The notes beneath the pieces were generated by a model. It was not told the origin of the DNA, made no database searches, and saw nothing but the letters and a program-made list of their open reading frames with translations. Source: Escherichia coli (lineage in GTDB: Bacteria; Pseudomonadota; Gammaproteobacteria; Enterobacterales; Enterobacteriaceae). From it: 64,000 nt of DNA. Positions 6,016 to 56,432 of this stretch are shown here, piece by piece (within the stretch, counting starts at the first letter, position 1; every line of letters begins with the position of its first letter). The stretch is from NCBI RefSeq assembly GCF_965641715.1, contig NZ_OZ282453.1; one strand, written 5' to 3'. Position numbers and translations under genes: made by a program.

Positions 6016-7398
6016 TCAACCTGCCACACTCCCCCACACCAGTTGCCCTTTATGGAACGTTGCGGTTCTCGGCGAGATACGCGCCACCGCCTCGGCGGAA
6101 CAGGAGGCGTCCACCAGCACAAAGCTGGCGTCATCCTGCGCTTTTGGCCATACACGCTCGCCTTTTTCATTCAGCGGCAATACATCGCCAGTGGCTAAAA
6201 ACAGCGAACGGGAGAGGTTCTGTTCGTTAGGACGAATATAGAGCTGCGCGTAGAGATTGGCTTTTTCCAGCATGTCGCCCAGACCATAAGGCGACCAGTG
6301 GTCGATAACGCTGTCAGTGCCAGTCATCACTTTTACGCCTTTGTCGTGCAACTGTTTGAGCGGCATATGCAGCGTGCCAATCGGCACTGTCGAGGCGATA
6401 GAAATTTGCTGCACCGCCATCCGGTGCGCCAGTTCATCTACCTGTTGTTCGTTGAGCGTTGCCAGCGCAAAGGCGTGGCTGATGGTCAGCTTGCCCTTCA
6501 GCTGTGGCGTTTTCTCTACCGTTTCAACCATATAATTGATGGCCGCCACGCCTGCCGGAGTGGTTTCGTGCAGGTGAATATCGACGCCTTTGTCGTAGTC
6601 CAGCGCAATCTGGAACATGGTGTCGAGGGATTTTTCCATCGCGCCATCAACACTGGTCGGGTCCAGGCCGCCGACGTAATGCGCCCCCGCCTGCATCGCT
6701 TCACGCATCAAAGGTTCAGATTTCGACAGCAGCAAACCGTGCTGCGGGAAGGCGACGATTTCACACTCAAAGCCCGCCTGACGTCGCGCCAGCACCGCCT
6801 GCAAATTTTGCAGATTTTTCAGGCCGGAAACCGGTTCGATATTGCAGTGGCTGCGGGCAATGGTGGTGCCTTTCGACTGCAATAAATCAATCAGTTTTTC
6901 TGCCCGCTCCTGAGTGTACGGTTGCAGCTCCGGCAGCATTTTCTGCTCGAGTTTGATCATGTCCTGGATGGTGGTGCCTGCCGGACGATTGAGCGAGCGC
7001 CACGGCCCGCCGTAGAAGGTTTTGTCGAGATGAATATGCATGTCGCGGGTGGTGGGCAGCATCAGCTTACCGCCAGCGTCATAGTGCGGCAGCGTGGCGT
7101 CCGGATGCTGCTTGTTCTCGCGCAGGGCGACAATTTTGCCGTCCTGAATCTCCACGGTCTGGCGCGCCGTGCGGGTCTGCACCGCCACACCATTTTCGTA
7201 GTCAAAACCGGTTTCCAGCAGCACGTTGTCGAGATAGTAATGCGGGTCAGTGATTTTCATGGTGTTGTTCGCTTCGCAGTTTAGGGTGCCAGCTACCGCC
7301 GCATGGGCGAGCGGCACAGAGGTACCAAACAGCGCGGCGGCGGTGACCATCTTACCGCTCTGGCTCAAAAACTCACGGCGGCTATTGTTTTCTTTCAT
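6016..7398 (-). CDS. yahJ: Amidohydrolase-superfamily deaminase with twin-arginine signal
   Basis: 460 aa; N-terminal SRREFLS Tat motif followed by hydrophobic stretch and AHA; metal-dependent amidohydrolase-like body. Confidence 0.85.
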   Translation of the reverse strand: MKENNSRREFLSQSGKMVTAAALFGTSVPLAHAAVAGTLNCEANNTMKITDPHYYLDNVLLETGFDYENGVAVQTRTARQTVEIQDGKIVALRENKQHPDATLPHYDAGGKLMLPTTRDMHIHLDKTFYGGPWRSLNRPAGTTIQDMIKLEQKMLPELQPYTQERAEKLIDLLQSKGTTIARSHCNIEPVSGLKNLQNLQAVLARRQAGFECEIVAFPQHGLLLSKSEPLMREAMQAGAHYVGGLDPTSVDGAMEKSLDTMFQIALDYDKGVDIHLHETTPAGVAAINYMVETVEKTPQLKGKLTISHAFALATLNEQQVDELAHRMAVQQISIASTVPIGTLHMPLKQLHDKGVKVMTGTDSVIDHWSPYGLGDMLEKANLYAQLYIRPNEQNLSRSLFLATGDVLPLNEKGERVWPKAQDDASFVLVDASCSAEAVARISPRTATFHKGQLVWGSVAG

Positions 7399-7407
7399 CT
7401 TACGTCC

Positions 7408-8358
7408 TTACGTTTTAATAATGTGGGTGCCCGTTTCACCGCGCAGCGCCGCTGGCAGGCATTCCGGCGTGGTGATAATCACTTCTTTACCGCCCTGTTC
7501 CAGGAACGTCAGGCTGGCGATGATTTTTGGCAACATGCTGCCGGGCGGGAAATGTCCTTCCTGCATATAGCGAGTCATGGTGGCAATATCCACCCGATCC
7601 AGCGCCTGCTGCTCGGGTTTGCCAAAATGAATACACACTTTTTCCACCCCGGTGGTGATCACCAGAATGTCGGCGTGAATTTCACGGGCCAGCAGCGCGG
7701 TAGAGAGATCTTTGTCGATAACCGCGTCCACGCTTTGGTAATCCCCCGCTTCAGTACGCACTACCGGAATTCCACCGCCGCCCGCGCCAATTACGACAAA
7801 ACCTTGTTGGATCAGCGCTTTAATGGCAGGTGCTTCGACAATACGTTTCGGTTCCGGCGAGGCGACCACGCGGCGATAGCCCCGCCCGGCATCTTCAACA
7901 AAACACCAGTCAGGGTTTGCCTTTTGTAATTCGTCACGCTGGCTTTCACTGAAGAATGCGCCGATGGGCTTGGTGGGATGGGCAAAACCTGGATCGTTTT
8001 TATCCACTTCCACCTGAGTCACCACGGTGACGGCTTTCTTCTCGCCGTGACGCGCCAGCCGGTTATTCAGCGCCTGTTGGATCAGATAGCCGATGCCGCC
8101 TTGCGTATCTGCCACACAGTTCGCCAGCGGCGTTAAGGGCAGCCCTTCGCGCTCGTGGGCAATCTCCGCACGGCGTAAATCCAGCCCGACCTGCGGCCCG
8201 TTACCGTGGGTCAGCACAATGTCGTAATCGGAAGCCAGCATTTCCAGCACCGTATCGGCGACGGCTTTCACCGCCTCCGCCTGATGCTCAATCGACTGGC
8301 TGGCGTTATCTTTGATAATGCTGTTGCCACCAATGGCAACGACCACAAGCTCTTTCAT
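7408..8358 (-). CDS. yahI: Carbamate kinase-like protein
   Basis: 316 aa; amino-acid kinase fold with N-terminal VVVAIGGNSI motif, matches remembered YahI. Confidence 0.85.
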   Translation of the reverse strand: MKELVVVAIGGNSIIKDNASQSIEHQAEAVKAVADTVLEMLASDYDIVLTHGNGPQVGLDLRRAEIAHEREGLPLTPLANCVADTQGGIGYLIQQALNNRLARHGEKKAVTVVTQVEVDKNDPGFAHPTKPIGAFFSESQRDELQKANPDWCFVEDAGRGYRRVVASPEPKRIVEAPAIKALIQQGFVVIGAGGGGIPVVRTEAGDYQSVDAVIDKDLSTALLAREIHADILVITTGVEKVCIHFGKPEQQALDRVDIATMTRYMQEGHFPPGSMLPKIIASLTFLEQGGKEVIITTPECLPAALRGETGTHIIKT

Positions 8359-8408
8359 GTTGTTATGTCCGCTACAGAGGGTGATGGGGTTATGACCAAC
8401 GCCAGACT

Positions 8409-8953
8409 GCCTGATGCGCTACGCTTATCAGGCCTACAAATTCTCGTGCCACTCGTGGGCCGGATAAGGCGTTCACGCCGCATCCGGCAATGGTGACAAA
8501 TGCCTGATGCGCTACGCTTATCAGGCCTACAAATTCTCGTGCCATTCGTGGGCCGGATAAGGCGTTCACGCCGCATCCGGCAATGGTGACAAATGCCTGA
8601 TGCGCTACGCTTATCAGGCCTACAAATTCTCGTGCCATTCGTGGGCCGGATAAGGCGTTCACGCCGCATCCGGCAATGGTGACAAATGCCTGATGCGCTA
8701 CGCTTATCAGGCCTACAAATTCTTGCGCCACTTGTAGGCCGGATAAGGCGTTCACGCCGCATCCGGCAATGGTGACAAATGCCTGATGCGCTACGCTTAT
8801 CAGGCCTACAAATTCTTGCGCCACTTGTAGGCCGGATAAGGCGTTCACGCCGCATCCGGCAATGGTGACAAATGCCTGATGCGCTACGCTTATCAGGCCT
8901 ACAGATTCTTGCGCCATTCGTAGGCCGGATAAGGCGTTCACGCCGCATCCGGC
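8409..8953. repeat. Tandem REP/BIME array, about six copies of a 93-bp unit
   Basis: unit starts at 8409, 8502, 8595, 8688, 8781 and 8874; each unit carries two imperfect palindromes; copies differ at a few positions. Confidence 0.9.
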
Positions 8954-8966
8954 ATGAACATGTAGG

Positions 8967-10385
8967 TCAGACGCCGTAACGTTCGCACCAGCCAAGAATG
9001 GCTTTCTCGAAGCAGGCAAAAGGTGGATGCACAATGCCCGCGCCAATCATGCCGACGCCCGCATCTTTATGGGCGATGGCGGTGTTGATCACTGGCAGAA
9101 TGCCGCTGCTACCCACGCGGGTGATGTCGATTGCCGACGGCACGCCCATAAAACCAAGCAGCGGAATGGTGACGTTGGGGTTTTCGCCAAGGGTGATTTC
9201 GCGCATCTGACGGGAGAAATCGATAGCCTCTTCCACCGTGCCACCCACCAGCGCGACGATTGCAGGCGCGGTCGCCATGGCAAATCCGCCAATACCGTAG
9301 GTTTCGGTGATGGCACTGTCGCCGATATCCAGCCCCGAATCTTCCGGCTTATAACCGGCAAACATCGGGCCGATCACCTGCTGCGCTGGGCCGGTAAACC
9401 ACTGCCCCGGCAGGCCGCTGACCCGCAGGCCGAACTCGACGCCGTTACGCGCCATGGTGGTAACGACGGTGCTGTATTCGATGCCGTGCGCCGCATCCAT
9501 CGCCGCTTTACACATCGCCATCCACGTCGGGCCGGAGAAGTAATCGCTACTGGCAACAAACTCAAACACTTCGCGCTGTTGCGCGACGGAATAGCCCGCC
9601 TGGATAATCCCCGGCGTCAGCGCCTGAATCAGCAGCGTCGTCCCGGCGTTATTGCGGTTATGGCACTCATCGCCCATATGCAGCGCCTGCGCCAGCATTA
9701 AGCGCAGATCGATTTCGCCGATAATTTTCATCGCATCGCGCAGTATTGGTCCCTGCACATCACGCATCCAGTTCAGGCGGTCAATCACGCTCTGGTCGTT
9801 AGCGCCCATACGCAAAATCTTCGCCATCTGCTCGCTCATGTTGGTATAAGCGATGTTGCCGTAGGTTTTGTTTTTTACGATGTGCATAAACATCGAGGCC
9901 GAGGTAACACCCGCCATCGATCCCACGCAGTCGTGCTCGTGACACGGCGAGAAGGTGATCTCCCCGGAAGCCGCCAGTTCAGCCGCCTCGTCGAGATCTT
10001 TCGCCAGTCCTTCGAACACCAGCGCTCCGGTGACCGCGCCTTTCATCGCGCCGCACATTTTTTCCCAGGTGATCGGCGGCCCGGCGTGAAGAATGGTTTT
10101 CGGCGTCATGCCCGGCACCACGTTAATCGCCTGATCAAAACCAATCAGCACCGGATGCGACTGGATAATGCGCTCCAGCGCCTGCTGGTTAGCGGCGGCG
10201 ATTTTGTCTGCCAGCGGCGAATCGGCAATGTTATCCAGCGCCTGCACCACCTGCATATTGCCCTGCCCCGGCGGCGTCCAGTCGAGTTGAGTCACTTCTA
10301 CATGCTGCTTTTTAAGAAAATCGCTAAACATGGCGATGCCGACGTTAATAACGTTCAATGGTTGGCTAAACAGTGACTGGCTCAT
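8967..10385 (-). CDS. yahG: DUF1116-family protein, YlbE-like
   Basis: 472-aa ORF, matches remembered YahG; 1-nt overlap with yahF. Confidence 0.8.
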   Translation of the reverse strand: MSQSLFSQPLNVINVGIAMFSDFLKKQHVEVTQLDWTPPGQGNMQVVQALDNIADSPLADKIAAANQQALERIIQSHPVLIGFDQAINVVPGMTPKTILHAGPPITWEKMCGAMKGAVTGALVFEGLAKDLDEAAELAASGEITFSPCHEHDCVGSMAGVTSASMFMHIVKNKTYGNIAYTNMSEQMAKILRMGANDQSVIDRLNWMRDVQGPILRDAMKIIGEIDLRLMLAQALHMGDECHNRNNAGTTLLIQALTPGIIQAGYSVAQQREVFEFVASSDYFSGPTWMAMCKAAMDAAHGIEYSTVVTTMARNGVEFGLRVSGLPGQWFTGPAQQVIGPMFAGYKPEDSGLDIGDSAITETYGIGGFAMATAPAIVALVGGTVEEAIDFSRQMREITLGENPNVTIPLLGFMGVPSAIDITRVGSSGILPVINTAIAHKDAGVGMIGAGIVHPPFACFEKAILGWCERYGV

Positions 10386-11932
10386 CAGGCTTCCTCCCCT
10401 TTGCAGATAAATTCACGCGCCAGCAATCCGGTATTGGTGCTGCTGCTCGCCAGAATCACTCCGGCATCAAGCAGCATCTGGCTTTGTTGTTCTAACGATG
10501 GCGTATCAAGATCGGTACCCAGCACATAGGCGAGAATGATCAACTCTCGTCCTTCGGCAGCGGCGATCGCTTTCGCTTCTTTGATCGCCTCGATGGTGGA
10601 GCCGACCGGATCTTCATGCGATCCAAATCCGAGCACAAAATCCATCACGATCACCGCCACTTCTGGATCGCGCGCCTCTTCGAGCAAGCGACTGATGCGG
10701 TTGGTGGGGTCAATCATTGGATGCGGCTTGCCGTTGGTGAAGTCGTCATCGCCAAAGTCGAGGAAGGTGTGTTTGATGCTGCGGTTGATATCTTTCAGGC
10801 GGAATTCCGGATCGGGCTGAATGTTGCTGTAGACATCGCCATGTTTTTCCATCACCGCGAACATGGTTTCGTCGCACAACGTGCCGCCGCAGAACAGGCC
10901 ACGAATGTATTTCTGCTGCGGTTGCAGACGCGCACGCACATCCGCAATCAACGGCTGGTTCAGGGTATGCAGGTCGAGATGTTCTTGTTTCACGCCGGAG
11001 AGCATCACCGCTTTTAGCGCCGCTTCTTTGCTGCCGCGGGCAAACTGTAGCCCCTGCTCATCCACTGGCGTTTCGCCACGACCGAGGAAGCAGACCACCA
11101 CCGGCTTGCGGCAGGCGCGCGCACGTTCCAGCACTTTGCGGGCCACCGCAGGCGCAGGCGGTTTGGAGATCAGCGCAATGATTTCAGTTTGCGGATCGTT
11201 TTCCAGCATCCCGATGGCATCGAGCATCATCAGGCCGCCGATTTTCTCGCTCAGGTCGCGCCCGCCGGTGCCAATCAGTTGCGAAACGCCACCGCCAAAT
11301 TCATGAATGCGGACGCTCAACTCCTGGCTGCCGGTGCCGGATGCGCCAACAATACCGATGTTGCCGCGACGCACGGCGTTACCAAAACAGAGCGACGCGC
11401 CGTTGATAATCGCCGTGCCACAGTCTGGCCCCATCATCAGCAGCCCTTTTTCGTGGGCCAGTTGCTTGAGCGCCAGTTCATCTTCAACTGAGACGTTATC
11501 GGAAAACAGCATCACGTTGAGATCGTTTTGCAGCGCCTGACGCGCTTCGCGAGCGGCAAACAGACCGTTGACCGAAATCACCGCCAGGTTACTTTCCGGG
11601 ATATGCTTTTTGGCGCTGGCAATAGTGGCGTAACGCGCCTCGTGCGAGCCGCTTTGCGCTTTGGTGTTGAACAGTTCTTCAATCTCCACCAGCAACTGCT
11701 CGTTGTCCGCCCCCGATTTACCATTGATGACAATCATCAGGTCGCCGTTTTTCGCCTGCTCCAGCTCCGGCGTCAGCAGTCCTAAATTTTTCAGCACACC
11801 TTTGTTCATTTCGGTCGCCATCGCCACAAATGCCTGCTCGACGCCGTCGAGTTTATTTGCACGCGTGGAGATAGACATCAGCGAGACAGAATCAAAATAG
11901 GTATTCGGTTTAATGACTATTTTAACTGACAT
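10385..11932 (-). CDS. yahF: FdrA-like protein with succinyl-CoA synthetase alpha-type fold
   Basis: 515 aa; CoA-binding/ligase-like glycine-rich segments (GIVGASGTG); matches remembered YahF. Confidence 0.8.
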   Translation of the reverse strand: MSVKIVIKPNTYFDSVSLMSISTRANKLDGVEQAFVAMATEMNKGVLKNLGLLTPELEQAKNGDLMIVINGKSGADNEQLLVEIEELFNTKAQSGSHEARYATIASAKKHIPESNLAVISVNGLFAAREARQALQNDLNVMLFSDNVSVEDELALKQLAHEKGLLMMGPDCGTAIINGASLCFGNAVRRGNIGIVGASGTGSQELSVRIHEFGGGVSQLIGTGGRDLSEKIGGLMMLDAIGMLENDPQTEIIALISKPPAPAVARKVLERARACRKPVVVCFLGRGETPVDEQGLQFARGSKEAALKAVMLSGVKQEHLDLHTLNQPLIADVRARLQPQQKYIRGLFCGGTLCDETMFAVMEKHGDVYSNIQPDPEFRLKDINRSIKHTFLDFGDDDFTNGKPHPMIDPTNRISRLLEEARDPEVAVIVMDFVLGFGSHEDPVGSTIEAIKEAKAIAAAEGRELIILAYVLGTDLDTPSLEQQSQMLLDAGVILASSSTNTGLLAREFICKGEEA

Positions 11933-12785
11933 AATTCCCTCCGTAGGTTTGGCTCAGCGCACAACCATCGGCCATGCCATACAGCATGTCGCAGCCGGAA
12001 CTGGAGCCAATATGTTTAATTTTTTCTATTGCCTGAGTTGCGTTCCCAGGGATGTCATAAATAATGTTGTGAATAAAACGATGAATATTTTCCCGGCAGC
12101 GTTGTTGTAATGCGGCTTCCAGCGTTATGGCACTTAATAACGTGGTATTATTTCTGCCGCGTTGCAAGCCGAGATAAAATTCCTCTTTGTATTTTCCCGC
12201 CGGATGCCCGGAAATAAATAAAATAAGTGCCAGACCTGTTAAATAATCATCGGCTAATGGCGTAAGGCCAATCCCTAAGCCCATCATACTGGCGACCGCT
12301 GAGGCGATATTTTGTTTATCGTTTACTGTCTGAATAACTGCCCGTCGTTTAATATGTAATTCTTTATTTAACGCCTGATAAAACGGATTATCGCCGCGAT
12401 AATTAAACAGGGTTTCATTTTCCCCCAGGTGCTGATGAATAATGTCGTGCCACTGTTGCCAGGCGATAAGGTGAAAATTCACAGCGGTCATTTGCAAGGT
12501 TGGGGACAGCCAACGCCGACAACGACTCATCTCTATATGAAGATGTTGACCAACCGTAATACCTTGATCGTCAAACTGAACCTTATCACCATGCCGGAAC
12601 AGATCATCAAAGTGAGTGAGTGCCAACCGACAACTGTTTGGCGCATTGTCGTACTCTTCACAAAGCAGCGTCAGCAACTGCTGGCGAGCCGGGAGTGCGA
12701 TATTTACCGCTCTGGCAAAGACCTGTTCAACCTGTCCTTGCCCCCGCTGCGCCAGAAAATCCGCATCCGCAGTTAGCGCCCACAC
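11922..12785 (-). CDS. yahE: DUF2877-family protein, YlbF-like
   Basis: 287-aa ORF overlapping yahF start by 11 nt (translational coupling). Confidence 0.75.
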   Translation of the reverse strand: MWALTADADFLAQRGQGQVEQVFARAVNIALPARQQLLTLLCEEYDNAPNSCRLALTHFDDLFRHGDKVQFDDQGITVGQHLHIEMSRCRRWLSPTLQMTAVNFHLIAWQQWHDIIHQHLGENETLFNYRGDNPFYQALNKELHIKRRAVIQTVNDKQNIASAVASMMGLGIGLTPLADDYLTGLALILFISGHPAGKYKEEFYLGLQRGRNNTTLLSAITLEAALQQRCRENIHRFIHNIIYDIPGNATQAIEKIKHIGSSSGCDMLYGMADGCALSQTYGGNYVS

Positions 12786-12824: not shown

Positions 12825-13430
12825 TTATGCACCTGCGGCAATCAGTAACTGCGCAATCTCTTCAAAGCCCCGTTCTCGCGCCAGTTCCAGTGGCGTTTTG
12901 CCATATTTATCGGTCAGATGCGGGCTGGCACCGTGTTCCAGCAATAACTGCACAATCGCCTGCTGTTTAATACCACCATCATTAAGCACAATCGCTTCCA
13001 GTAGCGGCGTCCAGCCTACATGGTTGGTCTGGTTAACGTTAATCTCCGTATACGCCAAAAGCTCTTTTACAATACTTAAATGGCCTTTTTCACAGGCAGG
13101 CGTCAGGCCGACACCGCCAAAACGGGTTACGCAATTAAGATCGGGTTTAGCCGGTAAAATAATTCGTAGTAGCGTTAAATCATCGTTCAGACAGCTAATT
13201 AAAAAAGGATTTAAACAGGTATGATCTTGTTTATTAATATCCGCTCCGGCGTCAATTAATGCCTGAACGCAAGCATATTGCTGATATAAACTTGCCAGCG
13301 TAATTGCCGTTTTCCCCTGACGGTCGCAGGTATTAATATCGACACCCAGCGCAAGGCAGTTTTTTACTTTATCGATATCACCCTGTTGTGCAGCCAATAA
13401 ATAGTCGGCAGGTAGATTTTTTATACTCAT
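12825..13430 (-). CDS. yahD: Ankyrin-repeat protein
   Basis: 201 aa with repeated ankyrin-like G-TPL/ALxxG..LL motifs. Confidence 0.8.
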   Translation of the reverse strand: MSIKNLPADYLLAAQQGDIDKVKNCLALGVDINTCDRQGKTAITLASLYQQYACVQALIDAGADINKQDHTCLNPFLISCLNDDLTLLRIILPAKPDLNCVTRFGGVGLTPACEKGHLSIVKELLAYTEINVNQTNHVGWTPLLEAIVLNDGGIKQQAIVQLLLEHGASPHLTDKYGKTPLELARERGFEEIAQLLIAAGA

Positions 13431-13687: not shown

Positions 13688-14185
13688 ATGAACGGACTCA
13701 CGGCAACGGGTGTCACCGTCGGTATTTGTGCAGGGCTTTGGCAGTTAGTGTCTTCACATGTCGGGCTCTCTCAGGGATGGGAATTATTAGGAACGACAGG
13801 CTTCGTCGCCTTTTGCAGTTTTTATGCCGCAGGCGGCGGTAAATCGGGGTTTATCAGAAGTCTGGCGGTTAATTATTCCGGGATGGTGTGGGCGTTTTTC
13901 GCCGCGCTGACTGCCGGTTGGCTGGCCACTGTAAGTGGACTGTCCGCGTTCTGGGCGAGCGTAATTACTACCGTACCCTTCTCGGCGGTGGTGGTCTGGC
14001 AAGGGCGTTTCTGGTTACTGTCATTTATTCCCGGTGGCTTTCTCGGCATGACGCTGTTTTTTGCCAGCGGGATGAACTGGACGGTGACGTTACTGGGTTT
14101 TCTGGCGGGTAACTGCGTGGGGATAATTTCAGAATATGGTGGACAAAAATTAAGCGAAGCGACGACTAAACGCGACGGGTATTAA
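13688..14185 (+). CDS. yahC: Small inner-membrane protein
   Basis: 165 aa, about four hydrophobic helices; divergent from yahD. Confidence 0.75.
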   Translation: MNGLTATGVTVGICAGLWQLVSSHVGLSQGWELLGTTGFVAFCSFYAAGGGKSGFIRSLAVNYSGMVWAFFAALTAGWLATVSGLSAFWASVITTVPFSAVVVWQGRFWLLSFIPGGFLGMTLFFASGMNWTVTLLGFLAGNCVGIISEYGGQKLSEATTKRDGY

Positions 14186-14276: not shown

Positions 14277-15209
14277 ATGAACTCAATTTTTACCGAAGAG
14301 AATCTGTTGGCATTTACTACCGCTGCGCGTTTTGGCAGCTTCAGTAAAGCCGCAGAAGAGTTGGGTTTAACCACTTCCGCCATTAGCTACACCATCAAGC
14401 GTATGGAGACGGGGCTGGATGTGGTGCTGTTCACTCGCAGTACCCGCAGCATTGAGTTAACGGAGTCCGGGCGTTATTTTTTCCGCAAAGCTACCGACCT
14501 GCTGAATGATTTTTATGCCATCAAACGTAGCATAGATACTATTTCGCAGGGCATAGAAGCGCGTGTGCGCATTTGTATTAATCAGCTGCTTTATACGCCC
14601 AAACACACCGCGCGCTTATTACAGGTGCTGAAAAAGCAGTTTCCTACCTGCCAGATTACCGTGACGACCGAAGTGTATAACGGCGTCTGGGATGCGATTA
14701 TTAATAATCAGGCCAATATCGCCATCGGCGCACCCGATACACTACTGGACGGCGGCGGTATTGATTACACTGAAATTGGCGCGATTCGCTGGGCTTTTGC
14801 TATCGCCCCGGATCACCCGTTAGCCTTTGTGCCGGAACCCATCGCCGAAAGCCAACTGCGTCTCTACCCTAATATTATGGTGGAGGACACCGCGCATACG
14901 ATTAATAAAAAAGTGGGCTGGTTGCTGCACGGGCAGGAGTCGATTCTGGTGCCAGATTTCAACACCAAATGTCAGTGCCAGATTTTAGGTGAAGGGATTG
15001 GTTTTTTGCCGGATTACATGGTCCGTGAGGCGATGACGCAATCCCTGCTGGTTACCCGACAAATCCATAATCCGCGCCAGGATTCGCGCATGTTACTGGC
15101 GACTCAGCATTCTGCTACGGGTCAGGTGACGCAGTGGATTAAAAAACAATTTGCGCCAAATGGCATATTAACGGGGATCTATCAGGATTTACTGCATCGG
15201 GAGAATTAA
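14277..15209 (+). CDS. yahB: LysR-family transcriptional regulator
   Basis: 310 aa; N-terminal HTH (FTTAARFGSFSKAAEELGLTTSAISYTIKRME) and LysR substrate-binding domain. Confidence 0.85.
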   Translation: MNSIFTEENLLAFTTAARFGSFSKAAEELGLTTSAISYTIKRMETGLDVVLFTRSTRSIELTESGRYFFRKATDLLNDFYAIKRSIDTISQGIEARVRICINQLLYTPKHTARLLQVLKKQFPTCQITVTTEVYNGVWDAIINNQANIAIGAPDTLLDGGGIDYTEIGAIRWAFAIAPDHPLAFVPEPIAESQLRLYPNIMVEDTAHTINKKVGWLLHGQESILVPDFNTKCQCQILGEGIGFLPDYMVREAMTQSLLVTRQIHNPRQDSRMLLATQHSATGQVTQWIKKQFAPNGILTGIYQDLLHREN

Positions 15210-55742: not shown

Positions 55743-56432
55743 ATGAGCAACCAAGGCGAATACCCCGAAGATAATCGGGTTGGGAAGCACGAGCCGCACG
55801 ATTTTAGTTTGACCCGTCGCGATCTGATTAAAGTGAGCGCCGCAACGGCGGCGACCGCCGTGGTTTATCCTCATTCTACGCTTGCGGCAAGCGTTCCGGC
55901 AGCTACACCCGCGCCTGAGATAATGCCCCTGACACTTAAGGTGAACGGCAAAACCGAGCAGCTTGAAGTGGATACCCGAACCACGCTACTGGACGCTTTG
56001 CGTGAAAATCTGCATTTGATCGGTACCAAGAAAGGTTGCGATCACGGACAGTGCGGAGCCTGTACCGTGCTGGTCAATGGTCGCAGGCTTAATGCCTGCC
56101 TGACGCTGGCAGTCATGCATCAGGGGGCCGAGATCACCACCATTGAAGGACTGGGTTCACCAGATAATCTTCACCCCATGCAGGCGGCCTTTATCAAGCA
56201 TGATGGCTTCCAGTGCGGCTACTGCACCTCCGGGCAAATTTGCTCATCAGTAGCGGTGCTAAAAGAGATTCAGGACGGCATTCCCAGTCACGTCACGGTC
56301 GATTTGGTTTCCCCTCCAGAAAGAACTGCCGATGAGATCCGTGAACGTATGAGCGGCAACATCTGTCGCTGTGGTGCATACGCTAACATCCTTGCCGCCA
56401 TTGAAGACGCTGCGGGGGAGATAAAATCATGA
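55743..56432 (+). CDS. paoA: Periplasmic aldehyde oxidoreductase, 2Fe-2S subunit
   Basis: 229 aa; Tat signal [18 protein letters not shown]; two [2Fe-2S] cysteine motifs ([11 protein letters not shown] and [11 protein letters not shown]). Confidence 0.92.

Follow-up and report, generated by a model that had tools for sequence, protein, structure and literature searches.

The N-terminus of the Escherichia coli amidohydrolase YahJ is, as read from its sequence, a genuine and conserved signal of the twin-arginine (Tat) type, and the product of the gene is very probably an amidohydrolase of the AtzC/cytosine-deaminase type, a (beta/alpha)8 barrel with a single metal, which is made with a cleavable Tat signal of 33 residues. 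Given the classic Tat signal at its start, there is little doubt that YahJ acts in the periplasm, and the most economical reading of its native location, which we infer, places it there beside the cytoplasmic YahEFG and YahI. The gene was analysed within a window, i.e., the whole stretch of 64,000 nucleotides taken from the contig NZ_OZ282453.1 (assembly GCF_965641715.1).

The Tat signal of YahJ is already known, and for some twenty years YahJ has figured in published compilations of the Tat substrates of E. coli. For example, YahJ is given as a Tat substrate, by TatP prediction, in Table 2 of PMC7549933, and b0324 stands in the TATFIND-based table of Tat substrates in PMC3027627. The former study also reports that an ExPEC strain from which yahJ had been deleted was modestly less fit in vivo, with a competitive index of 0.70 (p = 0.02), and in PMC11551758 yahJ is still found among the uncharacterised genes.

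The signal peptide of YahJ and its conservation

The translation of positions 6016-7398 on the minus strand gives a protein of 460 aa with the N-terminus MKENNSRREFLSQSGKMVTAAALFGTSVPLAHAAVAGTLNCEANN, in which the following features are recognised:

6016..7398, minus strand: yahJ coding sequence, 460 aa plus stop, with the mature catalytic domain from about residue 50 to 460
7300..7398, minus strand: signal peptide of yahJ, codons 1-33, MKENNSRREFLSQSGKMVTAAALFGTSVPLAHA; predicted cleavable Tat signal, listed in PMC7549933 Table 2
7366..7383, minus strand: twin-arginine motif S6-R7-R8-E9-F10-L11, conserved over the species-level loci
7309..7350, minus strand: hydrophobic core M17-L30, MVTAAALFGTSVPL, rich in Ala, Thr, Gly and Ser
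7300..7308, minus strand: c-region A31-H32-A33, predicted signal peptidase I site with cleavage before A34
7405..7409, minus strand: Shine-Dalgarno AAGGA of yahJ, with a 6-nt spacer to the ATG, overlapping the yahI stop codon

The ATG occupies 7396-7398, and the segment 7300-7398 corresponds exactly to codons 1-33, the last residues of which are A-H-A. A sequence-only reading had described an S-R-R-x-F-L motif, a hydrophobic core and an AxA site in this segment, and all three are borne out by the translation, by the uniqueness of the pattern in the window and by its conservation in 79 of 80 species. The motif follows the Tat consensus S/T-R-R-x-F-L-K except at the final K, a known variable position, which is replaced by S12; a conserved Lys is located five residues past the motif Leu (L11), instead of directly after F-L. 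The small residues at -3 and -1 before A34 are those expected at a signal peptidase I site, so that cleavage is predicted at this point. The c-region reads SVPLAHA, with no Lys or Arg and hence no basic “Sec-avoidance” residue, which is frequent in Tat signals and is not obligatory.

The signals of SufI/FtsP, AmiA, AmiC, CueO, MdoD and YcbK, which belong to cofactor-free or metal-only substrates, are similar to that of YahJ, with a length of about 30 residues, three parts, S/T-R-R-x-F-L, a mildly hydrophobic core rich in Ala, Gly and Thr, and AxA, and YahJ is listed in the same table as these substrates (PMC7549933 Table 2). YahJ differs from them in the Ser that replaces the consensus Lys after F-L and in the absence of a basic residue from its c-region.

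The window was also scanned in six frames for a composite Tat pattern, in which RRx[FLIVM][LIVMF] is followed by 13 or more uncharged residues and then by AxA. Of the 979 candidate starts that have 100 or more codons after them, a single one matched, and this was the start of yahJ. A looser Tat pattern also recovered YagT/PaoA at 55743, the other known Tat substrate of the window, which serves as a positive control.

Of the 80 species-level loci, which spanned Gamma- and Alphaproteobacteria, 79 retain RRxF[L/I], and the sole exception is cut off by the end of its contig. The R-R pair, the F at +2 and the L/I at +3 are each present in 79/79 of these loci, with S at -1 in 65/79, while the core, the c-region and the linker around this conserved motif vary freely; A-[YH]-A or A-x-A is found at the same distance from the RR in the orthologues. 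Similarly, RRxF[L/I] is kept in 114 of the 120 clusters of close orthologues, and the exceptions are four YahI-YahJ fusions, one truncated sequence and one sequence with R-H.

At or below about 45% identity, most homologues begin around YahJ residue 50 and are thus devoid of the N-terminal extension, and given that the whole extension is missing from these distant proteins, the signal can be seen as a detachable module. Closely related Bacillaceae homologues, at about 70% identity, occur both with and without the extension, which indicates that the chemistry works in either compartment. In Priestia, Metabacillus and Ectobacillus, tatA and tatC come immediately after the signal-bearing homologue, whose signal has the form SRR[KRE]F[LI], and share its strand, and no tat genes were found near the signal-less homologue of Sutcliffiella. 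This arrangement is similar to that of phoD-tatAd-tatCd in Bacillus subtilis, in which a Tat substrate is encoded beside its own translocase, although the passenger is a phosphodiesterase in that system and an amidohydrolase in the YahJ homologues. There are no tat genes next to the yahJ of E. coli, the product of which would use the general TatABC.

With regard to the other neighbours of the homologues, one lies directly downstream of a TonB-dependent receptor gene, some have nucleobase-type permease genes nearby, and a Bmp/ABC nucleoside-type transporter adjoins one cytoplasmic homologue. An internal start at Met47, which would produce a cytoplasmic isoform, was considered as a general mechanism and rejected, given that no Shine-Dalgarno-like sequence is found upstream of this codon and that the Met is missing in many orthologues.

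Fold and probable chemistry of the hydrolase

YahJ matches the amidohydrolase profile NF005312 with 716 bits, against a cutoff of 447, and the profile begins at residue 49. The AlphaFold2 model has a mean pLDDT of 90.7, and its values exceed 90 from about residue 50 onwards, while residues 1-5 and 15-45 have values below 50. In this model, YahJ is predicted to form a (beta/alpha)8 barrel with an adjoining beta-sandwich, for which AtzC and CodA are the nearest in fold; the Foldseek search returned 6nbo with a TM of 0.88, AtzC with 0.85 and CodA with about 0.75, and phmmer matched YahJ to 6nbo at 5e-44, with AtzC and CodA next. The matched PDB chains, which have 390-430 residues, align from YahJ residue 76 or later and leave the N-terminal extension uncovered.

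The residues H121, H123, D125, K126, Q219, H275, H277 and D362 are invariant across 58 homologues, at least 90% of which also conserve H308, and the HxHLDK of YahJ aligns with 6nbo. The metal and catalytic residues of this class are thus all present, namely the HxH that follows strand 1, the His residues further on and the Asp that follows strand 8, and presumably correspond residue by residue to the ligands of CodA and AtzC. AtzC (N-isopropylammelide isopropylaminohydrolase) and CodA (cytosine deaminase) share the HxH, the later His and the Asp with YahJ, from which they differ in an identity of only 21-29% and in the about 48 N-terminal residues (signal and linker) that YahJ adds.

As the AtzC-type isopropylaminohydrolases and the cytosine deaminases are the nearest solved relatives, the hydrolysis of an exocyclic C-N bond, with removal of the amine, is more likely for YahJ than the opening of a ring. 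The initial reading had proposed either a ring-opening or a deaminating step, and of these two the deaminating one agrees with the relatives of YahJ, whereas ring opening has become the less likely. No recognisable ring-opening enzyme was found in the yah cluster.

The yah cluster and the linkage of yahJ to it

Of 5426 complete E. coli genomes, 4944 have a match that covers 80% or more of the cluster, which in the window comprises, in addition to yahJ:

7408..8358, minus strand: yahI, carbamate kinase family (NF009007, 650 bits), without signal peptide by N-terminal analysis
8359..8966, no strand: REP/BIME array (the “yahH” region) between yahG and yahI, recognised in the sequence
8967..10385, minus strand: yahG, AllG-like (DUF1116; PF06545, E = 1e-88)
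10385..11932, minus strand: yahF, FdrA/AllF-like (NF004760, 492 bits; Pfam CoA_binding and Ligase_CoA domains)
11922..12785, minus strand: yahE, AllH-like (DUF2877; PF11392, E = 2.7e-27)
12825..13430, minus strand: yahD, ankyrin-repeat protein (Pfam Ank families), with no signal peptide in E. coli by N-terminal analysis
13688..14185, plus strand: yahC, divergent, small polytopic membrane protein of DUF1097 (PF06496)
14277..15209, plus strand: yahB, LysR-type regulator (Pfam HTH_1 and LysR_substrate)

The N-terminal analysis found no RR motif or signal-like N-terminus in YahE, YahF, YahG, YahI or YahD, in agreement with the earlier statement that YahEFG and YahI have no signal peptides. The co-export of YahEFG and YahI with YahJ was rejected by inference, given that these are nucleotide-dependent enzymes (with a CoA-ligase-like fold and an ADP-needing carbamate kinase), for which the cytoplasm is the expected compartment.

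YahEFG and YahI represent the three AllF (FdrA), AllG (DUF1116) and AllH (DUF2877) families together with a carbamate kinase, i.e., the families of AllFGH and AllK in the anaerobic allantoin pathway. AllFGH, the paralogue of YahEFG, is a characterised oxamic transcarbamylase, for which the phosphorolysis of an N-carbamoyl compound to carbamoyl phosphate is known (PMC11326118). The allantoin pathway is entirely cytoplasmic, whereas the yah cluster ends with a hydrolase predicted to be exported and adds an ankyrin and a membrane protein. The “yahH” region is described in PMC11551758 as filled with REP23 sites.

The gap between yahI and yahJ has only 9 nt and the Shine-Dalgarno of yahJ overlaps the yahI stop, which suggests that the two genes are co-expressed. 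A LysR gene adjoins the yahJ homologues in most loci, and yahD accompanies yahJ even at loci that have no yahEFGI. Some Alphaproteobacteria have an ankyrin partner with a signal peptide of its own, and the searches of the PDB and of the literature with YahD returned generic ankyrin matches only.

The genes yahEFGI are found beside yahJ in 33 of the 80 species-level loci and are absent from the other 47, where yahJ is usually accompanied just by the LysR gene. Given this, it is possible, if on the doubtful side, that YahJ is exported and yet functionally independent of YahEFG and YahI, with YahB and YahD as its partners, in which case the E. coli operon would join two modules and there would be no compartment-split pathway. 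Erwinia, Cedecea and Enterobacter sp. Ag1, which have only yahB-yahD-yahJ, are consistent with such independence, as are the YahD-like ankyrin genes found directly downstream of yahJ in the loci L002, L065 and L078, and the E. coli plasmids that carry yahB/D/E/F/G, a gene for a 12-TM protein and yahI, with a yahJ cut off after codon 11. On the other hand, the full cluster, ending in the Tat-bearing amidohydrolase, is kept from Escherichia to Aeromonas and Providencia, and the arrangement F5 - Ank/TPR - AllH - AllF - AllG - carbamate kinase - Tat-amidohydrolase, adjoined by a PucR-type regulator, recurs with a hydrolase that is only 35% identical to YahJ, which, together with the 9-nt gap and the overlapping Shine-Dalgarno, argues against two unrelated modules. 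The pathway split between two compartments, as originally proposed, is thus favoured by the signal-less YahE/F/G/I and by a linkage that persists down to 35% identity, and it is weakened by the 47 of 80 species in which yahJ stands without yahEFGI.

The 12-TM protein has 516 aa, and its permease-like gene is located between yahG and yahI in 25 loci of other species, at the position taken in E. coli by the REP array; a tblastn search found no remnant of this gene in the window. The source annotations name the protein a xanthine/AzgA-like permease, and this NCS2/AzgA label comes only from the source names and from a precomputed PF00860 match in one of 120 relatives. The protein itself had no match in Pfam or NCBIfam, nor a sequence match in the PDB, and its comparison by hhalign with two Xan_ur_permease proteins, in which the profiles were very shallow, reached a probability of 0.5%. 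The yahC gene is present only in clusters without the 516-aa gene, a mutual exclusion that may stem from a single ancestral rearrangement. From this distribution, circumstantial as it is, YahC might be suspected of being an importer, as had been suggested before.

Route of export and the proposed pathway

It is quite improbable that the signal exports YahJ mainly via Sec, or via both pathways, with an RR motif that is not decisive. The SVPLAHA segment without a basic residue and the missing consensus Lys after F-L would be compatible with some routing through Sec, and the reporter-fusion study of Tullman-Ercek et al. from 2007, which reportedly covered the YahJ signal, is said to have found that many Tat signals of E. 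coli are promiscuous if the reporter joined to them is compatible with Sec. However, the core of YahJ has a peak hydrophobicity of 1.63 (Kyte-Doolittle, 10-residue window), which is inside the range of published E. coli Tat signals (1.82 +/- 0.33, n = 24) and well under that of the Sec signals used for comparison (2.58 +/- 0.31, n = 10), and its 33 residues compare with a mean of 33.3 for Tat and of 21.9 for the same Sec set. The YahJ signal thus has the three-part structure, with the longer n-region and a core less hydrophobic than in Sec signals. In addition, R-R, F and L/I are invariant in 79/79 loci, which would not be required of a Sec signal, three Bacillaceae genera have tatA-tatC immediately after the homologue, and barrels that fold and acquire their metal in the cytoplasm are typical passengers of Tat.

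Another alternative, which has little probability, is that the N-terminus is an uncleaved membrane anchor or a lipoprotein signal. There is a precedent in OPH/PTE of Brevundimonas diminuta, which is, to judge from the title under which PMC9306846 cites Gorla et al. 2009, a Tat-targeted and metal-dependent (beta/alpha)8 enzyme of the amidohydrolase superfamily, as YahJ would be, and many enterobacterial orthologues have a Cys (C41) after the signal. OPH contains two metal ions and reportedly associates with the membrane, whereas YahJ is of the single-metal AtzC/CodA type, with a signal peptidase I site and no lipobox. The conserved A-[YH]-A of the c-region fits signal peptidase I, and the core, of only about 14 residues, is weakly hydrophobic. 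The lipoprotein signal was rejected, as T38-L39-N40 before C41 form no lipobox and many orthologues do not have the Cys.

The YahJ N-terminal 50 residues score 14.2 bits with TIGR01409 (TAT_signal_seq), below the cutoff of 16.7, and have no match to the Pfam TAT_signal. In a calibration on ten accepted E. coli Tat signals, only five passed TIGR01409, with WcaM at 14.8 and no match for AmiA, AmiC, FhuD or YcbK. This profile is insensitive and is no defining biological feature of Tat signals, and as it misses half of the accepted signals, the sub-threshold score of YahJ carries little weight. Given this, a vestigial or chance RR motif, like the remnant Tat motif of NarG, in a YahJ that stays in the cytoplasm beside YahEFG and YahI is very improbable, even if all other enzymes of the cluster are cytoplasmic and the approximately 70%-identity Bacillaceae homologues exist with and without the extension, since the complete three-part signal with its AxA site is conserved in 79/80 species, is matched uniquely in the window, has tatAC beside it in Bacillaceae and belongs to a protein published as a Tat substrate.

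In the Tat-dependent export that is preferred here, YahJ would fold in the cytoplasm and take up its metal (Zn or Fe) there, TatABC would recognise S-R-R-E-F-L and export the folded protein, and signal peptidase I would cut it after A31-H32-A33. The mature periplasmic enzyme may then hydrolyse an exocyclic C-N bond of a nucleobase-like or triazine-like N-heterocycle, in a deamination or a dealkylamination.

A second layer of this mechanism, which is plausible and put forward tentatively, would apply to E. coli and to about 40% of the related species. The product, or the nitrogen released from it, would be imported by an inner-membrane carrier, for which most enterobacteria would use the conserved 516-aa, 12-TM protein and E. 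coli might use YahC. In the cytoplasm, a carbamoyl intermediate would then be processed by the AllFGH-like carbamoyltransferase YahEFG and by the carbamate kinase YahI, to yield ATP, NH3 and CO2.

A broader and unlikely reading is that the YahJ-type hydrolases mark an unrecognised system of N-heterocycle salvage or catabolism, the first step of which takes place outside the cytoplasm, and which would combine a Tat hydrolase, an ankyrin partner, the 12-TM carrier or YahC, and cytoplasmic AllFGH-like and carbamate kinase enzymes. In such a system, the hydrolase would have its own TatAC pair in Bacillaceae, and the signal-less YahD of E. coli might leave the cytoplasm bound to YahJ, by Tat “hitchhiking”. 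The unclassified and unusually conserved 12-TM carrier would be replaced by YahC in the E. coli-type cluster, and the AllFGH-like carbamoyltransferase and the carbamate kinase would gain ATP and ammonia from the imported product.

The Tat signal alone adds nothing new, and its value is in the constraint that it provides on the uncharacterised cluster from yahB through yahJ. Any pathway proposed for this cluster has to assign the AtzC/CodA-like hydrolase to the periplasm, and the carbamoyltransferase and carbamate kinase to the cytoplasm, and must therefore include a transport step. The tatAC genes beside the homologue of Bacilli, the permease-like gene set against the REP array and yahC, and the signal-bearing ankyrin partner all provide starting points for finding the substrate of the cluster.

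The yahJ gene and its export signal

In the E. coli cluster, yahI, a REP array, yahG, yahF, yahE and yahD lie in that order upstream of yahJ, and yahC and yahB follow beyond yahD in divergent transcription. For an 8.8-kb query, the best matches showed 98.2% identity, and 4944 of 5426 complete E. coli genomes cover at least 80% of its length.

Features in the window
6016-7398, minus strand: yahJ ORF, 460 codons, translated product beginning MKENNSRREFLSQSGKMVTAAALFGTSVPLAHAAVAGTLNCEANN
7300-7398, minus strand: Tat signal of YahJ, exactly codons 1-33
7396-7398, minus strand: yahJ ATG
7405-7409, minus strand: AAGGA, 6-nt spacer to the yahJ ATG, overlapping the stop codon of the upstream gene yahI
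8359-8966: REP/BIME array, 608 bp, in the yahG-yahI spacer, containing the 'yahH' ORF
12825-13430: yahD, protein without signal peptide

The yahI and yahJ genes share a reading frame, with a gap of only 9 nt (7399-7407), and a few database entries (P0001-P0003, P0008) are YahI-YahJ fusions of 677-780 aa, presumably stop-codon variants or sequencing errors, in which the Tat signal would sit internally.

A six-frame scan was made with a composite Tat pattern, RRx[FLIVM][LIVMF] followed by a run of 13 or more uncharged residues and then AxA, at starts with at least 100 codons downstream; of 979 candidate starts in the 64-kb window, only that of yahJ matched. A looser pattern also recovered YagT/PaoA at 55743 and one false positive within a membrane protein. 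YagT/PaoA carries the second accepted Tat signal of the window (55743-55901, plus strand).

Along the hydrophobic core of YahJ (M17-L30), Kyte-Doolittle hydrophobicity peaks at 1.63, which is typical of 24 E. coli Tat signals (1.82 +/- 0.33; PMC7549933, Table 2) and well under that of ten Sec signals (2.58 +/- 0.31), and the length of the whole signal, 33 residues, equals the Tat mean in the same comparison. The TIGR01409 profile scored 14.2 bits on YahJ, under the cutoff of 16.7, and the Pfam search of YahJ gave no TAT_signal match, which weighs little because TIGR01409 passes only five of ten accepted E. coli Tat signals, with no score for AmiA, AmiC, FhuD and YcbK.

The YahJ signal was reportedly tried with reporter fusions by Tullman-Ercek et al. 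in 2007. The signal is already known rather than a new finding, given that published lists contain YahJ: it is one of 25 predicted Tat substrates, its signal given as MKESNSRREFLSQSGKMVTAAALFGTSVPLAHA, in a study where the competitive index of delta-yahJ in mice was 0.70 (p = 0.02; PMC7549933), and b0324 yahJ stands in a table derived from Dilks et al. 2003 (PMC3027627). The yah cluster was still among the uncharacterised genes in a 2024 listing (PMC11551758), and no paper on its biochemistry was found in the literature searched.

Conservation of the signal and type of enzyme

Close relatives (71% identity or more) form 120 clusters, of which 114 have R-R at the same place, the exceptions being four YahI-YahJ read-through fusions, one N-terminally truncated form and one R-H (Xenorhabdus szentirmaii). 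A species-level set of 80 loci, one genome per species at 58-98% identity, was drawn from Enterobacterales, Aeromonas, Shewanella, Halomonas, Rhizobiales and Paracoccus; RRxF[L/I] is kept in 79, and the sole exception ends at a contig end. Within the motif, R, R, F and L/I never change and S precedes RR in 65/79; the core, the c-region and the linker leading to the catalytic domain are freely variable. To judge from the sequences, a functional targeting signal should show just such an invariant motif in variable surroundings. Given the unique composite match and this conservation, the Tat motif, core and AxA site noted in the sequence-only reading are real.

The signal is a module separable from the enzyme. 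NF005312, the NCBIfam amidohydrolase profile (716 bits), begins at YahJ residue 49, and in the AlphaFold2 model (mean pLDDT 90.7) confidence is high from about residue 50 onward, with pLDDT below 50 at residues 1-5 and 15-45. Among 50%-identity representatives, homologues at or below about 45% identity mostly start near residue 50 and are signal-less, and a few distant ones again bear SRR-type N-termini. In Bacillaceae, forms with and without the extension occur among relatives that share about 70% identity with one another, some of the short ones probably being start-codon miscalls.

A PDB sequence search placed the AtzC-annotated 6nbo first (5e-44), followed by AtzC and cytosine deaminases, and the fold search of the model gave the same ranking (TM 0.88, 0.85 and about 0.75, respectively). 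Residues H121, H123, D125, K126, Q219, H275, H277 and D362 are invariant in 58 homologues, and H308 is kept in at least 90%, which fits the single-metal AtzC/CodA subgroup. Therefore, of the two reactions first proposed, ring opening or deamination, hydrolysis of an exocyclic C-N bond is the more likely. A metal-loaded barrel that folds before export would be a sensible Tat passenger.

Neighbouring genes and a possible transport step

Genes at the loci compared
L003, 10001-12438 (Priestia): YahJ homologue, tatA, tatC
L091, 6001-8498 (Metabacillus): YahJ homologue, tatA, tatC
L092, 6001-8474 (Ectobacillus): YahJ homologue, tatA, tatC
L014, 7461-9008: 516-aa gene
L006, 7300-8847: 516-aa gene
L008, 2228-3763: 516-aa gene
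L065, 11432-12109: YahD-like gene
L078, 6119-6796: YahD-like gene
L002, 2937-3611: YahD-like gene

At the three Bacillaceae loci, tatA and then tatC directly follow, on the same strand, a homologue with an SRR-type signal (e.g., FSRRRFISHASKIGGASAVLGV). This resembles phoD-tatAd-tatCd of B. subtilis, where a Tat substrate gene likewise stands beside translocase genes; no description of the YahJ-homologue arrangement was found in the literature searched. No tat genes lie near the signal-less homologue of Sutcliffiella cohnii. These gene neighbourhoods support the Tat reading independently of the signal sequence. Elsewhere (L007, 6672-11458), a TonB-dependent receptor gene immediately precedes the gene of a Tat-bearing homologue (about 50% identity), an arrangement which would agree with an enzyme that works in the periplasm on a substrate taken up from outside. 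In its database entry, this homologue seems to carry a frameshift at the C-terminus.

Between yahG and yahI, 25 loci encode a 516-aa protein with about 12 hydrophobic segments (the 12-TM gene). It is 65-98% identical over Proteobacteria and Firmicutes, and 71% in a distant cluster whose hydrolase is only 35% identical. The source annotation names a xanthine or AzgA-like permease, but profile comparison did not bear out this label, and no Pfam, NCBIfam or PDB sequence match was obtained. Some homologues have genes for nucleobase-type permeases or nucleoside ABC transporters nearby, which may hint at a nucleobase-like substrate.

In E. coli, the REP/BIME array occupies the exact site of the gene in those 25 other species, no remnant of it was found in the window, and the spacer measures 608 bp versus about 420 bp in the best-matching E. 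coli genome. The DUF1097 membrane protein gene yahC occurs only in clusters without the 12-TM gene (E. coli, E. albertii, Pseudocitrobacter, Kluyvera, Raoultella and Klebsiella spallanzanii), and the two never share a cluster among the loci compared. This exclusion may stem from one evolutionary event, and the suggested uptake via YahC, although speculative, would fit it.

The 12-TM gene is carried by 142/5426 E. coli genomes, for the most part on plasmids. One of these plasmids, pSA186_2 (NZ_CP022731.1, L094, 3107-12307), was examined: it has a second yah-like cluster, which reads LysR, ankyrin, DUF2877, FdrA, DUF1116, 12-TM gene and carbamate kinase, and its yahJ is interrupted after codon 11 (MKESDRRREFL) by an insertion beside IS elements.

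Linkage of YahJ to YahEFGI

The N-termini of YahD, YahE, YahF, YahG and YahI have neither an RR motif nor signal-like character, so the claim that YahEFG and YahI lack signal peptides holds. YahE is of the AllH family, YahF of the AllF family and YahG of the AllG family, and YahI is a carbamate kinase; the paralogous AllFGH is a characterised oxamic transcarbamylase (PMC11326118).

A periplasmic location of YahJ is likely from its signal. A compartment-split pathway would be plausible, given the signal-less partners and the cluster ending in a Tat-bearing hydrolase in 33/80 species; it is optional rather than general, as yahJ occurs without yahEFGI in 47/80, usually with a LysR regulator alone. 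The link between yahJ and yahEFGI is therefore optional. This absence, together with Erwinia, Cedecea and one Enterobacter, which retain only yahB-yahD-yahJ, would also suit two separate modules in the E. coli operon and no split pathway, a reading that we regard as possible but somewhat doubtful, given the linkage in 33 species and the same cluster type, beside a PucR-type regulator, in the distant contig with the 35%-identical hydrolase.

[quoted passage not shown] Owing to these signals and to the yahB-yahD-yahJ sets, the ankyrin protein seems to belong with YahJ and not with YahEFGI, and E. coli YahD might possibly be exported by Tat hitchhiking.

The signal is thus confirmed as real and conserved, and the interpretation first placed on it is partly supported. 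The Tat signal as stated adds little, and the side observations offer modest leads on the function of the cluster.
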